Assembly (NCBI GenBank): GCA_046754085.1
Contig: JBHHVE010000007.1
Span: forward strand, 26,964 to 90,963
Length of the DNA stretch: 64,000 bases
Origin: Leptospirillia bacterium
Lineage (GTDB): Bacteria > Nitrospirota > JACRHL01
Reading direction: 5' to 3'
Each line of letters starts with the position of its first letter. Position 1 is the first letter of the stretch. Below the pieces are notes generated by a model, which worked only from the letters and a program-made list of their open reading frames with translations, was not told where the DNA came from and did not search any database. Of the stretch, positions 21,717-41,743 are shown in pieces. The position numbers were made by a program, and so were the translations under genes.

Positions 21717-22913
21717 GTGACCACTCCGATGACTGACGAATTGCCCCTTTTCTTCGATCAGATTAACGGTGCCCCGCCGCTTCCGGAGGTGGTGACCGGG
21801 ATGACCCCCTGGATCGCTCTTTCGGCCAACCCGCAGGCCGACCACCAGTACGGTCGCCGCGCCCACACCGCCATGGAAGAGGCCCGCGCCCGGGTCGCGC
21901 TCCTGATCGGCGCCCGACCTGAACAGGTTCTTTTCGGCGCCAGCGGCACCGAAGTAAACAATCTGGCGATTAAAGGCACACTCAAGGCCAACCGCAAGAA
22001 AGGCCGGCGCATCGTGCTCTCCGCCGTGGAGCATCCCAGCGTGGAGCGTGCATGCCGCCGCATGACCGAGGCTCCGGGGGATGGCTACGACACCGTCATC
22101 GTCGGTGTCGACCGGGACGGTCGGGTGGATCCGGACAACCTGATGGCGGCAGTGACCGATGACACCGCGATGGTCTGCCTGCAACTGGCCAACCCGGAGG
22201 TGGGAACCGTTCAGCCGGTGGCGGACGTGGCCCGGTTCCTGTCCGGCCATCGGGCGCTTCTCATGGTGGATGCGGTGGCCGCCGCGGGCCGGATTCCGAT
22301 CGCTGTGGAAACGCTGGGGGCGGATTTGATGACCTTCTCCGCCCCCCCCATGGGAGGCCCCGCCGGAGCGGCGGCGCTGTGGGTGCGGAGGGGGGTGCGG
22401 ATACAGCCGGAAATCGACGGCGGCGTGCAGGAAGGCGGGCGGCGCGGCGGCACCGAAAACGTGGCGGCCATCGTCGGATTTGGCGTCGCCGCCGCCTGCG
22501 CCTACCAGGGCCTCACGGAACAGGGAGCACACCTCGACATGCTGGCGGACCGGCTGCGGGATGCCATCGGTTCCATCAGCGGCCTCAGCTTCACCGGACC
22601 GGATAACAAAAGACTCCCCGGCCACGTCAGCTTCCGTGTGGACGGCATCGAGGGCCAGAGCCTGCTTTTACGACTGGATCAGGCCGGTATCGCCGCCTCC
22701 TCCGGTTCGTACTGCGGGGCCAAGGCCATGAAGGCCTCGCCGGTGCTCACTGCCATGGGCTATCCCCCGGAGGCGGCACTGTCCGGGGTGGTGTTCTCCT
22801 TCGATGCGAAAATCGACGCCCGGAATGTAGACGAAGGCGCCCGACGGCTGCGAGAATGCGTGGAGAATCTCAGACGGGCATTTCCGGCGGGTACATCGGG
22901 GCCGACGGCGTAA
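21717..22913 (+). CDS. IscS/NifS-like class-V fold protein lacking the PLP-binding lysine
   Basis: Collinear with E. coli IscS as recalled: ASGTEVNNLAIKG, SAVEHPSV, RGGTEN, and the Cys loop SSGSYC. Where IscS has FSGHKIYGPKG, this protein has FSAPPMGGPAG, and DATQ is DAVA. Confidence 0.8.
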   Translation: MTTPMTDELPLFFDQINGAPPLPEVVTGMTPWIALSANPQADHQYGRRAHTAMEEARARVALLIGARPEQVLFGASGTEVNNLAIKGTLKANRKKGRRIVLSAVEHPSVERACRRMTEAPGDGYDTVIVGVDRDGRVDPDNLMAAVTDDTAMVCLQLANPEVGTVQPVADVARFLSGHRALLMVDAVAAAGRIPIAVETLGADLMTFSAPPMGGPAGAAALWVRRGVRIQPEIDGGVQEGGRRGGTENVAAIVGFGVAAACAYQGLTEQGAHLDMLADRLRDAIGSISGLSFTGPDNKRLPGHVSFRVDGIEGQSLLLRLDQAGIAASSGSYCGAKAMKASPVLTAMGYPPEAALSGVVFSFDAKIDARNVDEGARRLRECVENLRRAFPAGTSGPTA

Positions 22914-22977
22914 CCGCCACATGGGCGCCGCCCGGAATGCCGCATAGTAATTTGAATGAATGATTGGGAACCCTGCC

Positions 22978-23208
22978 ATGCAAGCCGACCTGACCCTGGA
23001 TGCCACCGGGCTATACTGCCCGATGCCGATTATCATGACCGCCAAGGAGATCAAGAAGATCGAAGTGGGGCAGATACTGGCGGTCAAGGCGGACGACGAA
23101 GGCATTCAGGCGGACCTTCCCGCATGGTGCAAAACCACCGGTAACGACCTGCTGGAGATTTCCCGGGACGGCTCGGTGTTTACCGGGTTCGTTCGCAAAA
23201 CCAAGTAA
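22978..23208 (+). CDS. tusA: TusA-family sulfur carrier
   Basis: MQADLTLDATGLYCPMPII contains the CPxP motif. An alternative ATG lies at 22960. Confidence 0.85.
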   Translation: MQADLTLDATGLYCPMPIIMTAKEIKKIEVGQILAVKADDEGIQADLPAWCKTTGNDLLEISRDGSVFTGFVRKTK

Positions 23209-23259
23209 TCGAATCAACGGCCTCTTTTTTTTTAACTGCTTTTTAAGGAGCGTACAACC

Positions 23260-23844
23260 ATGCCGCAAGTAACCTCTGCCGCCCCCGAGTTCAAAGCGCA
23301 AGCGCTGATGCCGGACAAGACCTTCAAGGAGATATCCCTCTCCGACTACCGTGGCAAGTGGGTGGTATTGTTCTTTTACCCCCTCGACTTCACCTTCGTC
23401 TGCCCCACCGAGATCATCGCGTACTCGGAAAAACAGGCGGAGTTCGAAAAGATCAATGCCCAGGCCATTGCCTGCTCGGTGGATTCGCACTACACCCATC
23501 TGGCGTGGGTCAACACCCCCCGTTCCGAGGGCGGTCTGGGCGACATGAAGATCCCCATGGTGGCCGACCTCTCCAAGCAGATCGCCGATGACTACGGCGT
23601 CAAGCTCGATGGGGGCATCGCCCTGCGCGGCACCTTCATCATCGACCCGGAGGGGATCATCCGTCACTCCACCGTGAACGACCTGCCGGTAGGCCGCAAC
23701 GTGGATGAGGCCAGCCGCATCATCCAGGCCTTCCAGTTTGTGGAAGAGCACGGCGAGGTCTGCCCCGCCGGATGGAACCCGGGCGACGACACCATGGTGC
23801 CGGATCCGGACAAGTCGAAAACCTACTTCGGCAGGCACGGCTAA
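23260..23844 (+). CDS. Typical 2-Cys peroxiredoxin (AhpC/Prx1 type)
   Basis: The peroxidatic Cys lies in [15 protein letters not shown] and the resolving Cys in [10 protein letters not shown]. Confidence 0.92.
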
Positions 23845-36213: not shown

Positions 36214-37149
36214 ATGCTCGAAATTATCGGCAAGACCCAGATCAACTTTCTCGGCAAGCGCCGGATCGCTTACGTAATATCCTCCGTGCTCATACTGCTC
36301 GGCCTCCTCACGGTGGGGCAGATCATCATGGGTAAAGCCAATCTGGGCATCGATTTCTCCGGCGGCAGCAGCGTGCAGCTCAACTTCGAGCACCCGGTCC
36401 AGATGGACGAGGTGCGCGACATGCTGTCGAACAGCGGCTTCAACGACGCCGACCTGCAACAGTTTACCGGCACCAACAAGCTCCTGATCCGGGTAAAGAG
36501 AAACGACACCATCGAAGAGAAGGTCTCCACCCGCCTGAAGGCCGTGTTCATCGAGCAGATGCCGGACAACCCGTTTGTGGTCGACTCGGTCACCGAGGTC
36601 GGCCCCTCCATCGGCTCCCGTCTGCAAAAAGACGCCGCCCTTGCGGTGGGCATCTCGTTCGTCGGCATCATCCTTTACATCGCCATGCGTTTCGAATTCC
36701 GCTTCGGGGTGGCGGCGGCCATCGCCACCTTCCACGACGTGCTGGCGGTGCTGGGCCTGTTTCATCTCATGGGCAACGAGATCAACCTGCTGCTGATCAC
36801 GGCGCTTCTGACCCTGGCCGGGTACTCCCTCAACGATACCGTGGTGGTGTTCGACCGCATTCGGGAAAACCTGAGAAAACGCCACGGGGAAAAGCTGGAG
36901 GAGGTGATCAACCGCGGCATCAACCAGGTGCTGTCCCGCACACTGGTCACCACCCTCACCACCCTGTTCGTGCTCGTCACCCTCACCCTGTGGGGTGGCG
37001 AGGTGCTGCACGACTTCGCCCTCGCCCTGCTGGTGGGGGTGTTTATCGGTAACTATTCGTCGATCTTCGTGGCGGGCTCCCTGGTGCTGGAATGGCGCAT
37101 GACCACTGTCCCGAAAAGGAACCCGCTCGCGGAAGAGGAAAAGATATGA
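36214..37149 (+). CDS. secF: Protein translocase subunit SecF
   Basis: GIDFSGGSSVQL, GYSLNDTVVVFDRIREN. Confidence 0.95.
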   Translation: MLEIIGKTQINFLGKRRIAYVISSVLILLGLLTVGQIIMGKANLGIDFSGGSSVQLNFEHPVQMDEVRDMLSNSGFNDADLQQFTGTNKLLIRVKRNDTIEEKVSTRLKAVFIEQMPDNPFVVDSVTEVGPSIGSRLQKDAALAVGISFVGIILYIAMRFEFRFGVAAAIATFHDVLAVLGLFHLMGNEINLLLITALLTLAGYSLNDTVVVFDRIRENLRKRHGEKLEEVINRGINQVLSRTLVTTLTTLFVLVTLTLWGGEVLHDFALALLVGVFIGNYSSIFVAGSLVLEWRMTTVPKRNPLAEEEKI

Positions 37150-37907
37150 GTCGTTCCACCCTGAAGACTGTGCTCTCTGCCGGGTTGCTCCTGCTGTTAC
37201 CGGCATGTGGCGGAGACTCCGACACCCAGAAGGAAATTCTGGCGGAGATCAAGAGCCTGCGCGCCGAGGTGGCGGAGATCGCCGAGGAGGTGTCGAACAT
37301 CAAAGCCGCTCCGGCGGCCCCCTCCCGCTCCGCTGGCCGTCCCCCCGCACCCACCTCCGCCACGGTCAACGCGGCGCCCTTCCCGGCCATGGGGAACAAG
37401 GACGCGGCAGTTACAATCGTCGAGTTTTCCGACTACCAGTGCCCGTTCTGCCGACGGCACACCAACAACACGATTCCGCAACTGAAGGCCAACTACATCG
37501 ACAAGGGCCAGGTGCGCTACGTGTACGTGGATAACCCCATCGCCTCTCACAGGCATGCCCCCAAGGCGGCAGAGGCGGCCCACTGTGCCGGTGAGCAGGG
37601 CAAATTCTGGCAGATGCACGACCACCTGTTCGCCAACCAGCACCGCATTCGCCCGGAGAATTTCCCGGTGTTTGCCGCCGAATTGAAACTGGACACCAAT
37701 GAATTTGGCGAATGCTTAGACTCCGGCCGTCACGCCCCCCTGGTCGAAGCCGGCAGGAAGGCGGGCACCGAGGCCGGCGCCCGTGGCACCCCCACCTTCG
37801 TGATCGGAAAAACCCGCTCGGACGGCACGGTCAGCGGCGACCTGGTGGTGGGCGCCAAGGCGTATTCCGTATTCGAGGCCAAGCTGAGCCAACTGCTCGG
37901 GTCTTAG
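37146..37907 (+). CDS. DsbA-family thiol:disulfide oxidoreductase lipoprotein
   Basis: ATG 37146 overlaps the secF stop (ATGA). Lipobox LLLLPACGG. Active site FSDYQCPFCRRH. Confidence 0.85.
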   Translation: MSRSTLKTVLSAGLLLLLPACGGDSDTQKEILAEIKSLRAEVAEIAEEVSNIKAAPAAPSRSAGRPPAPTSATVNAAPFPAMGNKDAAVTIVEFSDYQCPFCRRHTNNTIPQLKANYIDKGQVRYVYVDNPIASHRHAPKAAEAAHCAGEQGKFWQMHDHLFANQHRIRPENFPVFAAELKLDTNEFGECLDSGRHAPLVEAGRKAGTEAGARGTPTFVIGKTRSDGTVSGDLVVGAKAYSVFEAKLSQLLGS

Positions 37908-37909
37908 CA

Positions 37910-37935
37910 CCCACCCCCGCGGGGGTGGGAATTTC
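37910..37935 (+). terminator. Hairpin terminator after the dsbA-like gene
   Basis: CCCACCCC-CGCG-GGGGTGGG followed by AATTTCC; the U tract is weak. Confidence 0.55.
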
Positions 37936-37959: not shown

Positions 37960-38004
37960 TTGACACGGATTCCGTTTCGATATATATTCGTACACTCGAA
38001 TATA
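37960..38004 (+). promoter_or_regulatory. Consensus sigma70-type promoter with a palindromic operator overlapping the -10
   Basis: TTGACA (37960-37965), 17-nt spacer, TATATT (37983-37988). Perfect inverted repeat TATATTCG-N6-CGAATATA (37983-38004) ends 8 nt before the arsR-family ATG. Confidence 0.7.
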
Positions 38005-38012
38005 AAAAGATT

Positions 38013-38357
38013 ATGAAACGTGCGTTTGTAGATGAAATCAACCAACTCCATGCGGAGTTGTGTCAGGCCCTGGCAGATCCCAAGCGCCTGCTGATCCTGT
38101 ATGCCCTGGGCGATGGCTCCCTTTCGGTGGGAGACCTGGCCGATCGGCTCGGGCTTCGGCAGTCCAACGTTTCCCAGCACCTTGCGGTTCTCAGGGACCG
38201 TGGCCTGGTGGTGGCGCAACGCGCCGGCACCACTGTGTATTACTCAATCAAGTACCCCATGGTTCTCGAAGCCCTGGACCTGCTGCGCGGGGTGCTCAAA
38301 GACAAACTGACCGAGGCGCGGGACCGCGCCGACCGTTTCATGGAGATGACCCGATGA
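38013..38357 (+). CDS. ArsR/SmtB-family transcriptional regulator
   Basis: Motifs: LCQALADPKRLLILYAL, VGDLADRLGLRQSNVSQHLAVLRDRGLV. Contains a single Cys (C17). Confidence 0.88.
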   Translation: MKRAFVDEINQLHAELCQALADPKRLLILYALGDGSLSVGDLADRLGLRQSNVSQHLAVLRDRGLVVAQRAGTTVYYSIKYPMVLEALDLLRGVLKDKLTEARDRADRFMEMTR

Positions 38358-38605
38358 GCGATATCGCATCCGACACGGCTGTGGACCAGATCCTGGACAT
38401 CTGTGGCGTGACCTGCCCGATCACCTTTGTGAAGAGCAAGCTGACCCTGGAGCGCATGCAGCCCGGACAGGTACTCAAGGTCCTGATCGACTATCCGCCG
38501 TCGGCGGAGAACGTGCCCCGCAGCCTGGCCCATGAAGGCCACGAGATCATCAGCATCACCGAGACCGACGGCCCGCTCTGGACCCTGCTGGTCCGCAAGG
38601 CTTAG
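38354..38605 (+). CDS. TusA-like sulfur carrier (variant CPIT motif)
   Basis: ATG 38354 overlaps the arsR-family stop (ATGA). LDICGVTCPITFVKSKL has a Cys-Pro, but the second Pro of CPxP is Thr. Confidence 0.8.
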   Translation: MSDIASDTAVDQILDICGVTCPITFVKSKLTLERMQPGQVLKVLIDYPPSAENVPRSLAHEGHEIISITETDGPLWTLLVRKA

Positions 38606-38625
38606 ATGGCATAAGGCGCCCCACG

Positions 38626-38970
38626 ATGGCCAAGAAACTCGGCATTCTGCTCAACACAAGCCCGGAGCACCAGAATACCTACACCGCCTGCCAGCTGGCC
38701 CAGGCCTTCCTCGACGATGGCCACGAAGCGGAGCTGTTCCTGATGAACGACGGGGTCTACAACGTGATCCGCAACAACGAATCGCCCTACCGGCTGTTCG
38801 GCGGGGTTGAGGACCTGATGAGCAAGGGGCTCAAGGTCAGCCTGTGCCTGACCACCGGGGACATCCGGGGGCTGTGCCAGGATGATTTTCTGGAAGGGGT
38901 GGAATGCTGTAGCCAGGACCATCTGGCCGACATCGTGACTGCCGCGGACTACTTCCTGCATTTCGGATAG
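38626..38970 (+). CDS. DsrE/TusD-like protein (compact, 114 aa)
   Basis: MAKKLGILLNTSP.., LFLMNDGVYNV, and Cys74 in VSLCLTTGDIRG, which matches the DsrE/TusD active-site context C-x5-RG. Confidence 0.75.
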   Translation: MAKKLGILLNTSPEHQNTYTACQLAQAFLDDGHEAELFLMNDGVYNVIRNNESPYRLFGGVEDLMSKGLKVSLCLTTGDIRGLCQDDFLEGVECCSQDHLADIVTAADYFLHFG

Positions 38971-38975
38971 CGATC

Positions 38976-39320
38976 ATGAAGAACGTCGTCCTGCTTTTGC
39001 GCCACACCCCCCTGAACCACATCAAGAACCTGGAGGCGTTCCGCCTCGGTCTCGGCCTGACCCTGAGCAACAACGAGGTCACGGTGGCGATGATCGATCA
39101 GGGGGTGTTCAATGCCCTCGATTTCCGGCCCGAGGTGGTGGGACGCCCCTCGGTGGACAGTTTTCTGGACTTCTACGGCGACGTCGGCGTGCGCTCACTG
39201 GTGGACCGCGAGGGCGTTGCCCAGGCGGGCATCAGCACCCTGCGTGAGGGCGTTGAAGCGGTGGATAGAAAAGAAATCATCGAGATGCTGCGCAGCGCCG
39301 ACCTGGTTATCCCGTTCTAG
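38976..39320 (+). CDS. DsrF/TusC-like protein (114 aa)
   Basis: VVLLLRHTP..EAFRLGLGL..VAMIDQGVFNAL...ADLVIPF is the DsrE/F-fold pattern and lacks the active-site Cys. Confidence 0.7.
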   Translation: MKNVVLLLRHTPLNHIKNLEAFRLGLGLTLSNNEVTVAMIDQGVFNALDFRPEVVGRPSVDSFLDFYGDVGVRSLVDREGVAQAGISTLREGVEAVDRKEIIEMLRSADLVIPF

Positions 39321-39329
39321 GAGAAGAGA

Positions 39330-39578
39330 GTGGCGAAAACCCTGCATATTCTCCGCAACCTGGACATCCGGCTCTGTCAGGAAACGCTGAACGCCCCGGC
39401 GGGTGACTCGGTGCTCCTGATTCAGGACGGCGTACTGGGACGCGACCATTTTGACTGTGAGGTCCGTGTCTGTCGTGACGACCTTACCGCCCGCAACATG
39501 GAGAGCAGCCACAAGGCGCTTTCCTATACTGAAATCAAGGACCTGATGCTGGCCCACGACCGCGTGATTCTATGGTAG
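39330..39578 (+). CDS. DsrH/TusB-like protein (82 aa)
   Basis: GTG start. LHILRN..RLCQETL..SVLLIQDGV has a Cys16 positioned like DsrH Cys20 of Allochromatium (recalled). Confidence 0.65.
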   Translation: MAKTLHILRNLDIRLCQETLNAPAGDSVLLIQDGVLGRDHFDCEVRVCRDDLTARNMESSHKALSYTEIKDLMLAHDRVILW

Positions 39579-39621
39579 CCGAGGGGTCCGGACCGAATAT
39601 CCGTTTGGAGGTTTATTTGTC

Positions 39622-39864
39622 ATGAGTGAGACCATTCAGGTCGATCAGGAACTCGACTGCCGGGGGCTTTCCTGCCCGCTGCCGATCGTCAAGACCAAGA
39701 AGGCCATCGACGGCATGGCGGTGGGACAAATCCTCAAAATGACCGCCACCGATCCTGGATCGGTGAACGACATGGCCGCCTGGGTCCGAAAAACCGGCAA
39801 CGATATAGTGGACCAGACCGAAGCCGGCGGCGAGTACACATACTTTATCCGCAAAGCCGGGTAG
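39622..39864 (+). CDS. tusA: TusA-family sulfur carrier
   Basis: LDCRGLSCPLPIVKTKKAI contains the CPxP motif; also ATDPGSVNDMAAW. Confidence 0.88.
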   Translation: MSETIQVDQELDCRGLSCPLPIVKTKKAIDGMAVGQILKMTATDPGSVNDMAAWVRKTGNDIVDQTEAGGEYTYFIRKAG

Positions 39865-39929
39865 CGTTAGAGTTATACATGGACCCGCGGCACGCCGAGG
39901 GCCATTCAACACATAGGAATCCGCCACCC

Positions 39930-40529
39930 ATGAGCGAGACGGACAAGAACATAGACAGCATTGTCGAGGAACGGCTACAGGCCCTGCTCGACCAGAAACT
40001 CGGCAGTCTGGTGGACGAGCGGGTGGCCAAGGCCCTGGCCGAGCACGAGGCCGCCCAGGGCGGTCAGCTCGACCGCATCGCCATTGTCGCCTCCAAGGGC
40101 AGCCTGGACATGGCCTATCCGCCCCTGATCCTCGCCACCACGGCGGCGGCCATGGGCATGGAGGCCGGTATCTTCTTCACCTTCTACGGCCTCGACATCA
40201 TCAACAAAAAGAAGAACGCCCACCTCCAGGTGCCGTCTCTGGCCAACCCGGCCATGCCGGTGCCGGTGCCCAACATCATCGGCGCCCTGCCGGGCATGAC
40301 CATGGCGGCCACCATGATGATGAAAAACTGGATGGGCCGGGTGAACCTCAACTCAATCCCCGAGTTCCTCGAGATGGCCCTGGACCTGGACTGCAAGCTG
40401 ATCGGCTGCCAGATGACCATGGACGTCATGGGCACCTCGAAAGAGGACATGATCGACGGCATCGAAGTCGGTGGCGCCGCCACTTTCCTGGAGTATGCCA
40501 GCAAGGCCAAGATCAGCCTGTTTATCTAA
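39930..40529 (+). CDS. DsrE2-like (DsrE/DsrF-like family, COG2210-type) protein
   Basis: ATG 39930. Motifs: IAIVASKGSLDMAYPPLILATTAAAMGMEAGIFFTFYGL, CKLIGCQMTMDVMG. Confidence 0.75.
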   Translation: MSETDKNIDSIVEERLQALLDQKLGSLVDERVAKALAEHEAAQGGQLDRIAIVASKGSLDMAYPPLILATTAAAMGMEAGIFFTFYGLDIINKKKNAHLQVPSLANPAMPVPVPNIIGALPGMTMAATMMMKNWMGRVNLNSIPEFLEMALDLDCKLIGCQMTMDVMGTSKEDMIDGIEVGGAATFLEYASKAKISLFI

Positions 40530-40546
40530 AATTTCGCCCCAGTGCG

Positions 40547-40586
40547 AAAAAAGGCCGCCGGGCGAAACGCACCGGCGGCCTTTTTT
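40547..40586. terminator. Bidirectional rho-independent terminator
   Basis: A6 run, stem GGCCGCCGG, 10-nt loop, stem CCGGCGGCC, T6 run. Lies between the convergent dsrE2-like gene and wecE. Confidence 0.85.
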
Positions 40587-40606
40587 CGATCCCGGCGGAA
40601 CCGGCT

Positions 40607-41743
40607 TTACGCTCCCCCCAATTCCTGTCCAATCAGGTCGCGGGCACGTTCCACCACCTCGTCCGGCAGATCCACCCACAGGGGCAGGCGGATCAGCCGT
40701 TCGCTCAACGCCTCGGTGTTGGGAAGGGGATCGCGCACCGCCCCATATTTGAGGCCCGCGGGCGAGCTGTGCAGCGGCACATAGTGGAACACCGCGGAGA
40801 GTCCCGCCTCCTTGAGCCGCGCCAGCACCCGGGTGCGGGCGTCCAGGTCCGGCAGCAGCAGGTAGTACATATGGGCGTTGTGCTCGCATCCCTCGGGCAC
40901 GATGGGACGCCGCACCTTGCCCGCCGCCTCCAGGTCGGCGAAGGCGGTGTGATAGCGTTCCCACACCGCCAGCCGGAAGCGGGTGATCTCTTCCCCGCTC
41001 TCCAGTTGGGCCAGCAGGAACGCCGCCACCAGATCACTCGGCAAAAACGACGAGCCCACGTCGCTCCAGGTGTATTTGTCCACCTGGCCCCGGAAAAACT
41101 GCCGCCGGTTGGTGCCCTTCTCCCAGATGATCTCGGCCCGCTCGGCCAGCGCCGGGTCGTTGACCAGCAGCGCGCCCCCCTCCCCGGAAATCAGGTTCTT
41201 GGTCTCGTGAAAGCTGAAGCATCCCAACTGGCCGATGCTGCCCAGCGGCCTCCCCTTGTAACGGGCGATCACCCCCTGGGCGGCGTCTTCAATCACCGGC
41301 AGACGGTGGCGTCCGGCAATCTCCATGATGGTGTCCATCTCGCAGGCGACCCCGGCATAGTGCACCGGCACGATGGCGCGGGTACGAGGGGTGATGGCCC
41401 GCTCAATCAGGCGCTCGTCCAGGTTCAGGGTGTCCTCCCGGATGTCCACGAACACCGGCACGCCACCCCGCAGCACGAAGGCGTTGGCGGTGGAGACGAA
41501 GGTGTAGGACGGCATGATGACTTCATCGCCCGGCCCCACCCCGGCCAGCAGTGCCGACATCTCGAGGGCGGCGGTACAGGAGTGAGTCAAAAGCGCCCGG
41601 GCACAGTCCGCGTAGGCTTCCAGCCAGGCGGCACAGCGTTTGGTGAACGGCCCGTCCCCGGCCAGGCGGCCCGCGCCGAGGGCCTCCTGAACGTACTCGA
41701 CCTCTTTTCCGGTCGCGTACGGCTTGTTAAAACGAATCGTCAA
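40607..41743 (-). CDS. wecE: dTDP-4-amino-4,6-dideoxygalactose (Fuc4N) transaminase
   Basis: Near-collinear with E. coli WecE as recalled (EVIMPSYTFVSTANAFVLRG, VPVHYAGVACEMDTIM, GCFSFHETKN, EKGTNRRQFFRGQVDKYTW, NAHMYY). TTG 41743 is preceded by GAAGGAG plus 5 nt and gives 378 aa. Confidence 0.88.
   Translation of the reverse strand: MTIRFNKPYATGKEVEYVQEALGAGRLAGDGPFTKRCAAWLEAYADCARALLTHSCTAALEMSALLAGVGPGDEVIMPSYTFVSTANAFVLRGGVPVFVDIREDTLNLDERLIERAITPRTRAIVPVHYAGVACEMDTIMEIAGRHRLPVIEDAAQGVIARYKGRPLGSIGQLGCFSFHETKNLISGEGGALLVNDPALAERAEIIWEKGTNRRQFFRGQVDKYTWSDVGSSFLPSDLVAAFLLAQLESGEEITRFRLAVWERYHTAFADLEAAGKVRRPIVPEGCEHNAHMYYLLLPDLDARTRVLARLKEAGLSAVFHYVPLHSSPAGLKYGAVRDPLPNTEALSERLIRLPLWVDLPDEVVERARDLIGQELGGA

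Follow-up and report, generated by a model that had tools for sequence, protein, structure and literature searches.

The window analysed here is a stretch of 64,000 nucleotides from a Leptospirillia bacterium of the phylum Nitrospirota (contig JBHHVE010000007.1 of assembly GCA_046754085.1). Our subject is a run of seven genes on its + strand at positions 38013-40529, namely arsR, tusA1, three genes designated E, F and H for their likeness to dsrE, dsrF and dsrH, tusA2, and a dsrE2-like gene. From their sequences we are highly confident that the seven genes constitute one transcription unit, putatively autoregulated by its ArsR-type repressor, and that they encode what is predicted to be a complete cytoplasmic persulfide relay. 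The parts of this relay, assigned with the same confidence, would be a small E-F-H heterotrimer (predicted, and closest to the DsrEFH complexes of type II), a TusA1 of the CPxT type, and a canonical TusA2 paired with the DsrE2-like protein. That this regulated relay works in sulfur assimilation or thiocarboxylate biosynthesis is, in our judgment, an even proposition. The comparative context of the genes points to these two processes, and, because the genome is without the usual partners of type II complexes, biosynthesis rather than energy metabolism is probably what the relay feeds. As DsrC/TusE is absent in this genome and in nearly all genomes with a trio of this type, the sulfur cannot reach the classical acceptors.

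The operon and its proteins

The preliminary description of this DNA, made from the letters alone, had reported seven tightly packed genes on one strand, with the arsR stop overlapping the next ATG; the open reading frames (ORFs) and the ATGA overlap were both verified (Table 1). The operon measures 2.6 kb and encodes seven small proteins, the intergenic gaps in gene order being -4, 20, 5, 9, 43 and 14 nt. If Met18 (39930) is the true start of the DsrE2-like protein, the 14 nt become 65 nt; this methionine, conserved in relatives, is the probable start. The Pfam assignments run, in order, HTH_5/ArsR, TusA, DsrE, DsrE, DsrH, TusA and DrsE_2. The promoter/operator and the bidirectional terminator said to bracket the genes were also recovered. 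Near-consensus promoter sites in the region number two, compared with 0.5 expected. The -35 element is retained across the aligned upstream regions of seven relatives, and -35 together with -10 at loci L001, L007 and L008. In the upstream alignment the core of the presumed operator is retained in 7/7 members of the host's own family, and its flanks have diverged. Beyond the operon a convergent gene ends at 40607, with the terminator hairpin between the two. On the other side, positions 37910-37929, directly after a DsbA-like gene (37092-37907), form a perfect GC-rich palindrome of 10+10 nt (CCCACCCCCG/CGGGGGTGGG), which is probably the terminator of that gene and would insulate the arsR promoter.

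Table 1. Genes and regulatory elements of the operon, in window coordinates
Feature	Position	Strand	Remarks
sigma-70-type promoter TTGACA-17-TATATT	37960..37988	+	11/12 matches
presumed ArsR operator, palindrome ATATTC-N8-GAATAT over -10	37984..38003		ArsR binding inferred
arsR	38013-38357	+	114 aa
tusA1	38354-38605	+	83 aa; ATGA overlap with arsR stop
E (dsrE-like)	38626-38970	+	114 aa
F (dsrF-like)	38976-39320	+	114 aa
H (dsrH-like)	39330-39578	+	82 aa; GTG start after AGGAG
tusA2	39622-39864	+	80 aa
dsrE2-like	39879-40529	+	216 aa from first ATG; 199 aa from Met18 at 39930
bidirectional intrinsic-terminator hairpin	40545..40588		perfect 17-bp stem, A-run upstream, T-run downstream

The gene identities first proposed, a DsrE/F/H-like trio among them, held up in the Pfam searches and in single-chain AlphaFold (AF2) models built from family alignments, the folds of which match the cognate subunits of Allochromatium vinosum. 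The F protein scored 33.4 bits against PF02635, and H scored 23.8 bits against the Pfam DsrH family, marginally below its cut-off of 24.4. The model of H (predicted local distance difference test, pLDDT, of 94) has 2hy5_C (DsrH) as its sole significant match in the Protein Data Bank (PDB), with a TM score of 0.81, and the top PDB match of the F model (pLDDT 84) is 2hy5_B (DsrF), with a TM score of 0.86. Among solved structures, E is closest by sequence to YchN and TusD. As read from these alignments and predicted folds, the three small proteins map one-to-one onto DsrE, DsrF and DsrH. None reaches the cut-off of the corresponding equivalog model: E scored 31.2 bits against TusD/DsrE (TIGR03012, cut-off 89.25), F 20.0 bits against TusC/DsrF (TIGR03010, cut-off 94.15), and H 33.1 bits against TusB/DsrH (TIGR03011, cut-off 49.2). 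Because all three scores lie far below the cut-offs, the trio is, by its sequences, neither a canonical TusBCD nor a canonical DsrEFH. The short lengths originally given for the three proteins were correct; they sum to 310 aa, or an estimated ~34 kDa. The H family is small: of 1.84 billion clusters, 936 have a representative that matches at E<=1e-3, and for 169 of them the match reaches E<=1e-10.

The cysteines of the trio required some revision of what had been claimed. The cysteine of E, Cys74, does occupy the conserved active-site position, where it aligns with TusD Cys78, with the cysteine of YchN, and with that of DsrE in the YTD (yedE-tusA-dsrE-like) clusters; its sequence context is LC-x6-RG and not the C-x5-RG first reported. 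It is invariant across 11 relatives. The F subunit contains no cysteine at all. In H the N-terminal cysteine noted earlier is present as Cys16, and it proved to be lineage-specific rather than an equivalent of DsrH Cys20, being conserved in a few close relatives only; a cysteine stands there in 1% of 141 cluster representatives, and alanine is the commonest residue.

Two observations on other DsrE-like genes belong here. At loci L083, L084, L085 and L089 of other Nitrospirota, ArsR-headed DsrE-like genes have an in-frame TGA exactly at the Cys74 position (VDI-U-TGC) and are followed by an F-like gene, and dozens of "1 TGA" DsrE-like matches were returned by the scan of the phylum; the position of this codon suggests an active-site selenocysteine. 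The host genome itself has a second, far more divergent DsrE-like/DsrF-like pair directly after a transaldolase gene (contig C8, locus L041:4400-5073), of which the DsrE-like member groups in the E tree with the trio of a Nitrospira-like genome (L087).

The two TusA proteins are of different types, as had been stated. TusA1 (72.9 bits against PF01206) has the active-site motif C21-P-I-T in place of CPxP, as first read. A C-P-x-T-F-V-K-x-K-L motif is retained in the trio-linked TusA proteins of four phyla, and judging from this sequence conservation the CPIT of TusA1 is a subfamily variant and not a defect. TusA2 (90.8 bits) carries the canonical C18-P-L-P. It has a second cysteine, Cys13, in the context D-C-[RK]-G-L-S-C-P in all of its orthologues from both seven-gene lineages described below; the resulting C-x4-C pair is, to our knowledge, absent from E. 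coli TusA. The DsrE2-like protein passes the Pfam model DrsE_2 (PF13686) with 161 bits and falls below the cut-off of the DsrE2 equivalog NF047629 (167.8 bits, cut-off 210). Its N-terminus carries a helical extension, and its sole invariant cysteine is Cys177, in LIGCQMTMDVMG. A third TusA (canonical CPMP) is encoded ~14 kb upstream in the window (21717-23844), in a row with an IscS/NifS-like aminotransferase of class V and a peroxiredoxin; this row is a possible further entry of sulfur into the TusA network.

The repressor is a member of the ArsR/SmtB family with one conserved cysteine, Cys17, in helix alpha-1. In the alignment of its relatives the cysteine pair with which BigR and SqrR sense their signal (one in helix alpha-2, one in the C-terminal helix) is missing, and a tyrosine stands at what we take to be the position of BigR Cys42. 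Its score against the BigR equivalog model is 52.5 bits (cut-off 155). The protein resembles no solved ArsR specifically, and BigR, SqrR and sHdrR are not closer to it than the metal sensors are. Sensing of the BigR/SqrR type was ruled out for want of the cysteine pair. Literature searches for the NCBIfam name "TsoR" yielded nothing relevant.

Partner genes in the genome and in relatives

The window is part of a metagenome-assembled genome (MAG) that is 98% complete, and the absences given here rest on profile searches of the whole genome. DsrC/TusE (PF04358) returned 0 matches, with a positive E. coli control. DsrAB was not found, the only NIR_SIR proteins being two of assimilatory type, and SoxZ and CysH (phosphoadenylylsulfate reductase) were not found either; YeeE was found neither in the genome nor in the operon. 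The preliminary description had seen no dsrAB, dsrC/tusE, sox or rhodanese genes in the window. For the first three the absence extends to the whole genome, and several rhodaneses do occur elsewhere in it, as does MnmA. A sulfide- or thiosulfate-oxidising front end was not found, inasmuch as SoxZ and YeeE are lacking; no dedicated models for sulfide:quinone oxidoreductase (SQR) or persulfide dioxygenase were run. No sHdr-like cluster was present among the CCG proteins inspected, and a single distant GcvH match was obtained; a 295-aa CCG protein of HdrB size on contig C22 was assigned to an SdhABE-type enzyme as its third subunit.

Several known pathways were set aside on these results. The rDsr/Dsr pathway was ruled out because the genome has neither DsrAB nor DsrC, and Sox and import by YeeE were ruled out because both are absent. 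The canonical TusBCD-TusE-MnmA relay was also ruled out: MnmA is present, TusE is not, and the three proteins score well short of the equivalog cut-offs. The sHdr-LbpA pathway is unlikely given the SdhABE-type identity of the 295-aa protein; two further CCG frames, of 435 and 469 aa on separate contigs, lay outside this inspection.

A sulfite reductase fused to a TusA domain (Sir::TusA) accompanies the trio in every genome tested. In the host genome it is an 828-aa protein of assimilatory type (contig C38:4534-7020, - strand; locus L040), with two NIR_SIR repeats, a long Ala/Glu-rich linker and a C-terminal TusA domain bearing CPMN. This domain is nearest to TusA1, which is its closest paralogue and 40-47% identical to it, compared with ~30% for TusA2. 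Our sample comprised 401 Nitrospirota genomes, ~30 of which have a trio of this type at E<=1e-30. A Sir::TusA-type reductase of ~800-850 aa was found in 25/25 other trio-type genomes tested, besides the host genome, and in 0/3 genomes with YTD-type loci. DsrC/TusE exceeded the cut-off in 1/25 trio-type genomes, a 78%-complete MAG with 5% contamination, and was absent in 24/25, but it was present in every control, three genomes of YTD type and two of Sec type. One family encodes Sir::TusA as part of an Rrf2-AprA-like-AprB-like-Sir::TusA-Sat operon (L096), at a distance of 7-9 kb from the trio, and in other families CysH lies directly beside the fusion gene. Our literature searches, which covered open-access papers, found no described Sir::TusA fusion, nor this operon in Nitrospirota.

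Two more loci of the host genome bear on sulfur assimilation. An Rrf2-AprA-like-AprB-like-Sat operon without a Qmo neighbour is located on contig C10:12196-16085 (- strand; locus L129 5188-9086). Its AprAB-type enzyme looks, from sequence and context, like one for assimilatory adenylylsulfate (APS) reduction, and because the host's family is without CysH it is probably the only APS reductase there. On contig C22 (locus L039:4733-9419) we found a fusion of ThiS with a pyridoxal-phosphate (PLP) enzyme, a ThiF, a ThrC-like PLP enzyme whose N-terminus shows a zinc-ribbon-like motif, a ThiS and a second ThiF. The ThiF ORFs (317 and 272 aa) have only the ThiF domain by Pfam and no rhodanese domain. 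This cluster likely represents a protein-thiocarboxylate route to cysteine or homocysteine. The perfect operator palindrome occurs as a single copy in the 2.72-Mb genome; a whole-genome motif search found no second copy, and so there is no sign of ArsR control over the Sir::TusA, AprAB-Sat or ThiS/ThiF loci.

The metagenome scan for related trios used the E alignment, and neighbouring genes were identified from HMM (hidden Markov model) or Pfam matches only, as greedy ORF picking in high-GC loci gave many shadow ORFs. The closest relatives are Nitrospirota MAGs. Six other genera of the host's family were sampled, and each has the seven-gene order intact, with E 75-82% identical; the order recurs in a second lineage, made up of Nitrospiria-labelled MAGs and soil metagenomes, with E 42-49% identical. 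The second lineage is flanked by a gene for a metallo-beta-lactamase (MBL)-fold protein upstream, the match being below the Pfam cut-off, and by an Rrf2 gene downstream, once also by a gene for a TauE/SafE-family exporter; the host genome has no homologue of this MBL protein or of TauE. A five-gene core, E-F-H-TusA2-DsrE2, is found in further Nitrospirota families, and the trio alone in Manganitrophaceae and others. Outside the phylum, Methanosarcinaceae MAGs have TusA1-E-F-H, one Chloroflexia MAG has E-F-H-TusA1-ThiF, and Methylomirabilota have Rrf2-CysK-ThiF-E-F-H-YeeE-rhodanese-TusA-...-TusA1-ThiS::PLP enzyme (PALP). In none of the loci examined does mnmA adjoin the trio. At the Chloroflexia locus (L034, 2423-8139) genes for a GcvH-like lipoyl carrier and an LplA-like ligase lie just upstream of the E gene, which is apparently frameshifted or truncated past ~residue 54.

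A proposed route and its rivals

In the mechanism that we propose, ArsR would sit on the palindrome over the -10 and be released by a signal, possibly a modification of Cys17. TusA1 would take up sulfane sulfur on Cys21 and load Cys74 of E, as TusA and DsrE type II of cable bacteria do in vitro (PMC13293266), and F and H would be non-catalytic scaffold subunits. With Sir::TusA, through its TusA1-type C-terminal domain, as donor or partner, the relay would connect this reductase to ThiF-type adenylating enzymes and ThiS-type carriers that are fused or adjacent to PLP-dependent cysteine/homocysteine synthases; other thiolation enzymes may be fed too. TusA2 and Cys177 of the DsrE2-like protein could form a second branch or an acceptor pair. 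We put forward a more specific form of this route tentatively, and consider it doubtful. It amounts to a "sulfide-free" assimilation, in which Sir would use its tethered TusA of CPxN/T type much as DsrAB uses DsrC, retaining the sulfur at the sulfane level as a persulfide on the protein, and TusA1, E-F-H and TusA2/DsrE2 would carry the persulfide to ThiF-activated ThiS-type carriers for the synthesis of cysteine or homocysteine, with ArsR tuning the capacity of the relay. If this were true, Nitrospirota, Methylomirabilota, some Methanosarcinaceae and Chloroflexia would possess a route that parallels the Dsr relay on the assimilatory side, and DsrE2 and type II-like DsrEFH would gain a role outside energy metabolism.

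A number of points weigh against assigning the relay to assimilation or thiocarboxylate biosynthesis. The window has no donor or acceptor gene beside the operon, and the assimilatory link consists of co-occurrence and the neighbourhoods of relatives. As the preliminary description had proposed, the operon is a self-contained, repressor-headed unit, with the genes for donor and acceptor located elsewhere. Sulfite reductase usually gives off sulfide rather than sulfane sulfur, and a persulfide hand-off by Sir::TusA needs unproven chemistry. AprAB-like proteins together with Sat are usually a dissimilatory set, and detoxification operons that respond to sulfide also typically have TusA/DsrE genes led by an ArsR-type repressor. 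The flanking MBL-fold protein and, once, the TauE-family exporter of the second lineage have to be counted here, as does the presence of MnmA, which leaves room for a role in tRNA thiolation. Finally, the sequence was contained only in DNA runs of hydrothermal-vent metagenomes; no RNA runs were found.

The preliminary description had left the choice among oxidation, detoxification and thiolation undecided. This choice is now narrower, as DsrC/TusE is absent and the context is assimilatory or thiocarboxylate-related. Of the alternatives, we regard as unlikely that the operon maintains reactive sulfur species homeostasis or detoxification, ArsR sensing sulfane sulfur and the carriers buffering persulfide and polysulfide in a sulfidic vent, in the manner of the Staphylococcus cst operon or the BigR/SqrR regulons. 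The conserved cysteine of the leading repressor, the vent metagenome from which the DNA comes, the MBL-fold and exporter genes next to the Nitrospiria-type operons, and the ArsR-headed DsrE-like candidate selenoproteins of other Nitrospirota would all fit such a function. The regulator, however, is without the two-cysteine pair of BigR, SqrR and sHdrR and is no nearer to these than to the metal sensors; the MBL match is under the Pfam cut-off, and neither that protein nor TauE has a homologue in the host genome; and most relatives come from groundwater and soil, where the trio stands amid biosynthetic genes.

More improbable still is a Dsr-independent cytoplasmic oxidation, in which TusA/DsrE2 and E-F-H would feed a Sir::TusA working in reverse, its TusA domain acting as DsrC does, and AprAB-like and Sat would oxidise the sulfite to yield ATP. 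The parts mirror the Allochromatium route (rhd-tusA-dsrE2, DsrEFH, DsrC/DsrAB, AprAB, Sat), with Sir::TusA replacing DsrAB/DsrC. An AprAB-type enzyme probably substitutes for CysH in the host's family, and the vent habitat and the proposal that the published type II complex marks sulfur oxidation (PMC13293266) agree with such a pathway. Against it, the reductase belongs with the monomeric enzymes of assimilation, and the same fusion lies beside CysH in other lineages. The type of regulator that heads the Sir::TusA operon, Rrf2, also heads CysK/ThiF clusters in relatives; no membrane link of the Qmo/AprM type lies beside aprAB-like in the two operons inspected; and SoxZ and YeeE, as parts of a sulfide- or thiosulfate-oxidising front end, are missing (no search dedicated to SQR was made). 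Nor do we know of sulfur oxidisers among the Manganitrophaceae, Methylomirabilota or Methanosarcinaceae.

We give least credence, and very little, to a TusBCD-like relay that would serve 2-thiouridine in tRNA or the thiolation of other cofactors (molybdenum cofactor, thiamine) without TusE. The subunit architecture is homologous, with the catalytic cysteine at the TusD Cys78 position, MnmA is encoded in the genome, and annotators at JGI labelled close relatives "TusD component". Yet TusE is absent, all three proteins fall far under the TusB/C/D equivalog cut-offs, the trio is never beside mnmA in the loci examined, and the ThiF genes of relatives accompany ThiS::PLP-enzyme and CysK genes, which speaks for amino-acid and not tRNA chemistry.

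The assimilatory or thiocarboxylate reading has consequences for how such genes are read in genomes. In genomes, DsrEFH-type complexes are taken to mark sulfur oxidation, a reading that the work on type II extends to many sulfate reducers (PMC13293266). If the assimilatory link holds, the DsrEFH marker could not be read as "sulfur oxidiser" without a check of its context, and DsrE2, whose function has so far been unknown, would acquire a testable role. Whether assimilated sulfur can pass from sulfite reductase to biosynthetic enzymes bound to proteins, with no free sulfide on the way, would likewise become testable. The compactness of the operon makes it suitable for reconstitution in vitro.

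Comparison with known relay systems

The nearest described system is DsrEFH type II, the name given in May 2026 to the small complex for which the YTD cluster has a dsrE-like gene and a pair of conserved hypothetical genes (Plum-Jensen et al., ISME J 2026, PMC13293266). It occurs in cable bacteria, sulfate reducers and sulfur disproportionators, is a 33-kDa heterotrimer with the active Cys67 in DsrE, and in the cable bacterial system passes sulfur in vitro from TusA onto type II DsrE and then to DsrC (PMC13293266). The authors counted it in 985 genomes, ~79% of them with DsrAB, required of each of the three proteins >80 bits with their HMMs, and proposed the complex as a marker of sulfur oxidation (PMC13293266). 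A small DsrEFH is not unprecedented, type II (33 kDa) preceding the trio described here.

YTD-type loci (YeeE-TusA-E-F-H) were recovered from other Nitrospirota genomes. The E protein is 39-41% identical to YTD-type E versus 29-31% to TusD/DsrE, and F is likewise nearer to the YTD-type sequences than to type I. In the E tree, the deeper branches of which are not resolved, TusD/DsrE (type I) sit on a long branch of their own, and the YTD sequences nest among the Methylomirabilota and Methanosarcinaceae relatives of the trio. Proxy HMMs, built from only three YTD loci and used in place of the authors' own, gave 63.0 bits for E, 57.4 for F and 23.9 for H. As these proxy scores are below the >80-bit cut-off, the trio was probably missed by the type II count. 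By its sequences it would be either a sister clade of DsrEFH type II or a divergent subtype of it, membership not being demonstrated. Like type II, it consists of three small syntenic genes, their products totalling ~34 kDa compared with 33 kDa, with a single catalytic cysteine in E, an adjacent tusA and low identity to type I. Unlike type II, it has yeeE in neither its operon nor its genome, YeeE appearing next to the trio in the Methylomirabilota relatives, and it coexists with neither DsrC nor DsrAB; the lack of DsrC is shared by the great majority of trio-type genomes, which, unlike those of YTD type, carry Sir::TusA. The operon also adds arsR, a second TusA and DsrE2.

With DsrEFH type I (A. 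vinosum, PDB 2HY5) and TusBCD (E. coli, PDB 2D1P), which are alpha2-beta2-gamma2 heterohexamers, the trio shares three side-by-side paralogous subunits, matching folds and the E cysteine at the TusD Cys78 position; its subunits are shorter and miss the equivalog cut-offs widely. It differs further from the type I complex of sulfur oxidisers in that DsrH Cys20 is not conserved and no DsrC/TusE acceptor exists. In its regulation the operon is like those of BigR, SqrR and sHdrR, its sulfur-carrier genes being preceded by one for an ArsR/SmtB winged-helix repressor, with a palindrome over the promoter, and unlike them in having, in place of the cysteine pair, the single conserved Cys17 in helix alpha-1. 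The succession of a canonical CPxP TusA and a DsrE2-family gene recalls rhd-tusA-dsrE2 of sulfur oxidisers, which in A. vinosum is Alvin_2599-2601 (Stockdreher et al. 2014, as cited in PMC11094781). In contrast to that cluster, the one studied here has no rhodanese, its genome is not of the Dsr kind nor, probably, of the sHdr kind, and its DsrE2-like protein, with an N-terminal helical extension and one invariant cysteine, stays below the equivalog cut-off.

A last comparison concerns biosynthesis. CysO, CysM and MoeZ make up the protein-thiocarboxylate route to cysteine in Mycobacterium tuberculosis, where MoeZ has a rhodanese domain of its own. Similarly, the trio of relatives stands between genes for ThiF, CysK and ThiS::PLP enzymes, and the same set of enzymes is encoded on contig C22 of the host genome. 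The ThiF ORFs of this genome, unlike MoeZ, are without a rhodanese domain and for that reason would need a persulfide donor acting in trans, which is the part that we propose for the relay.

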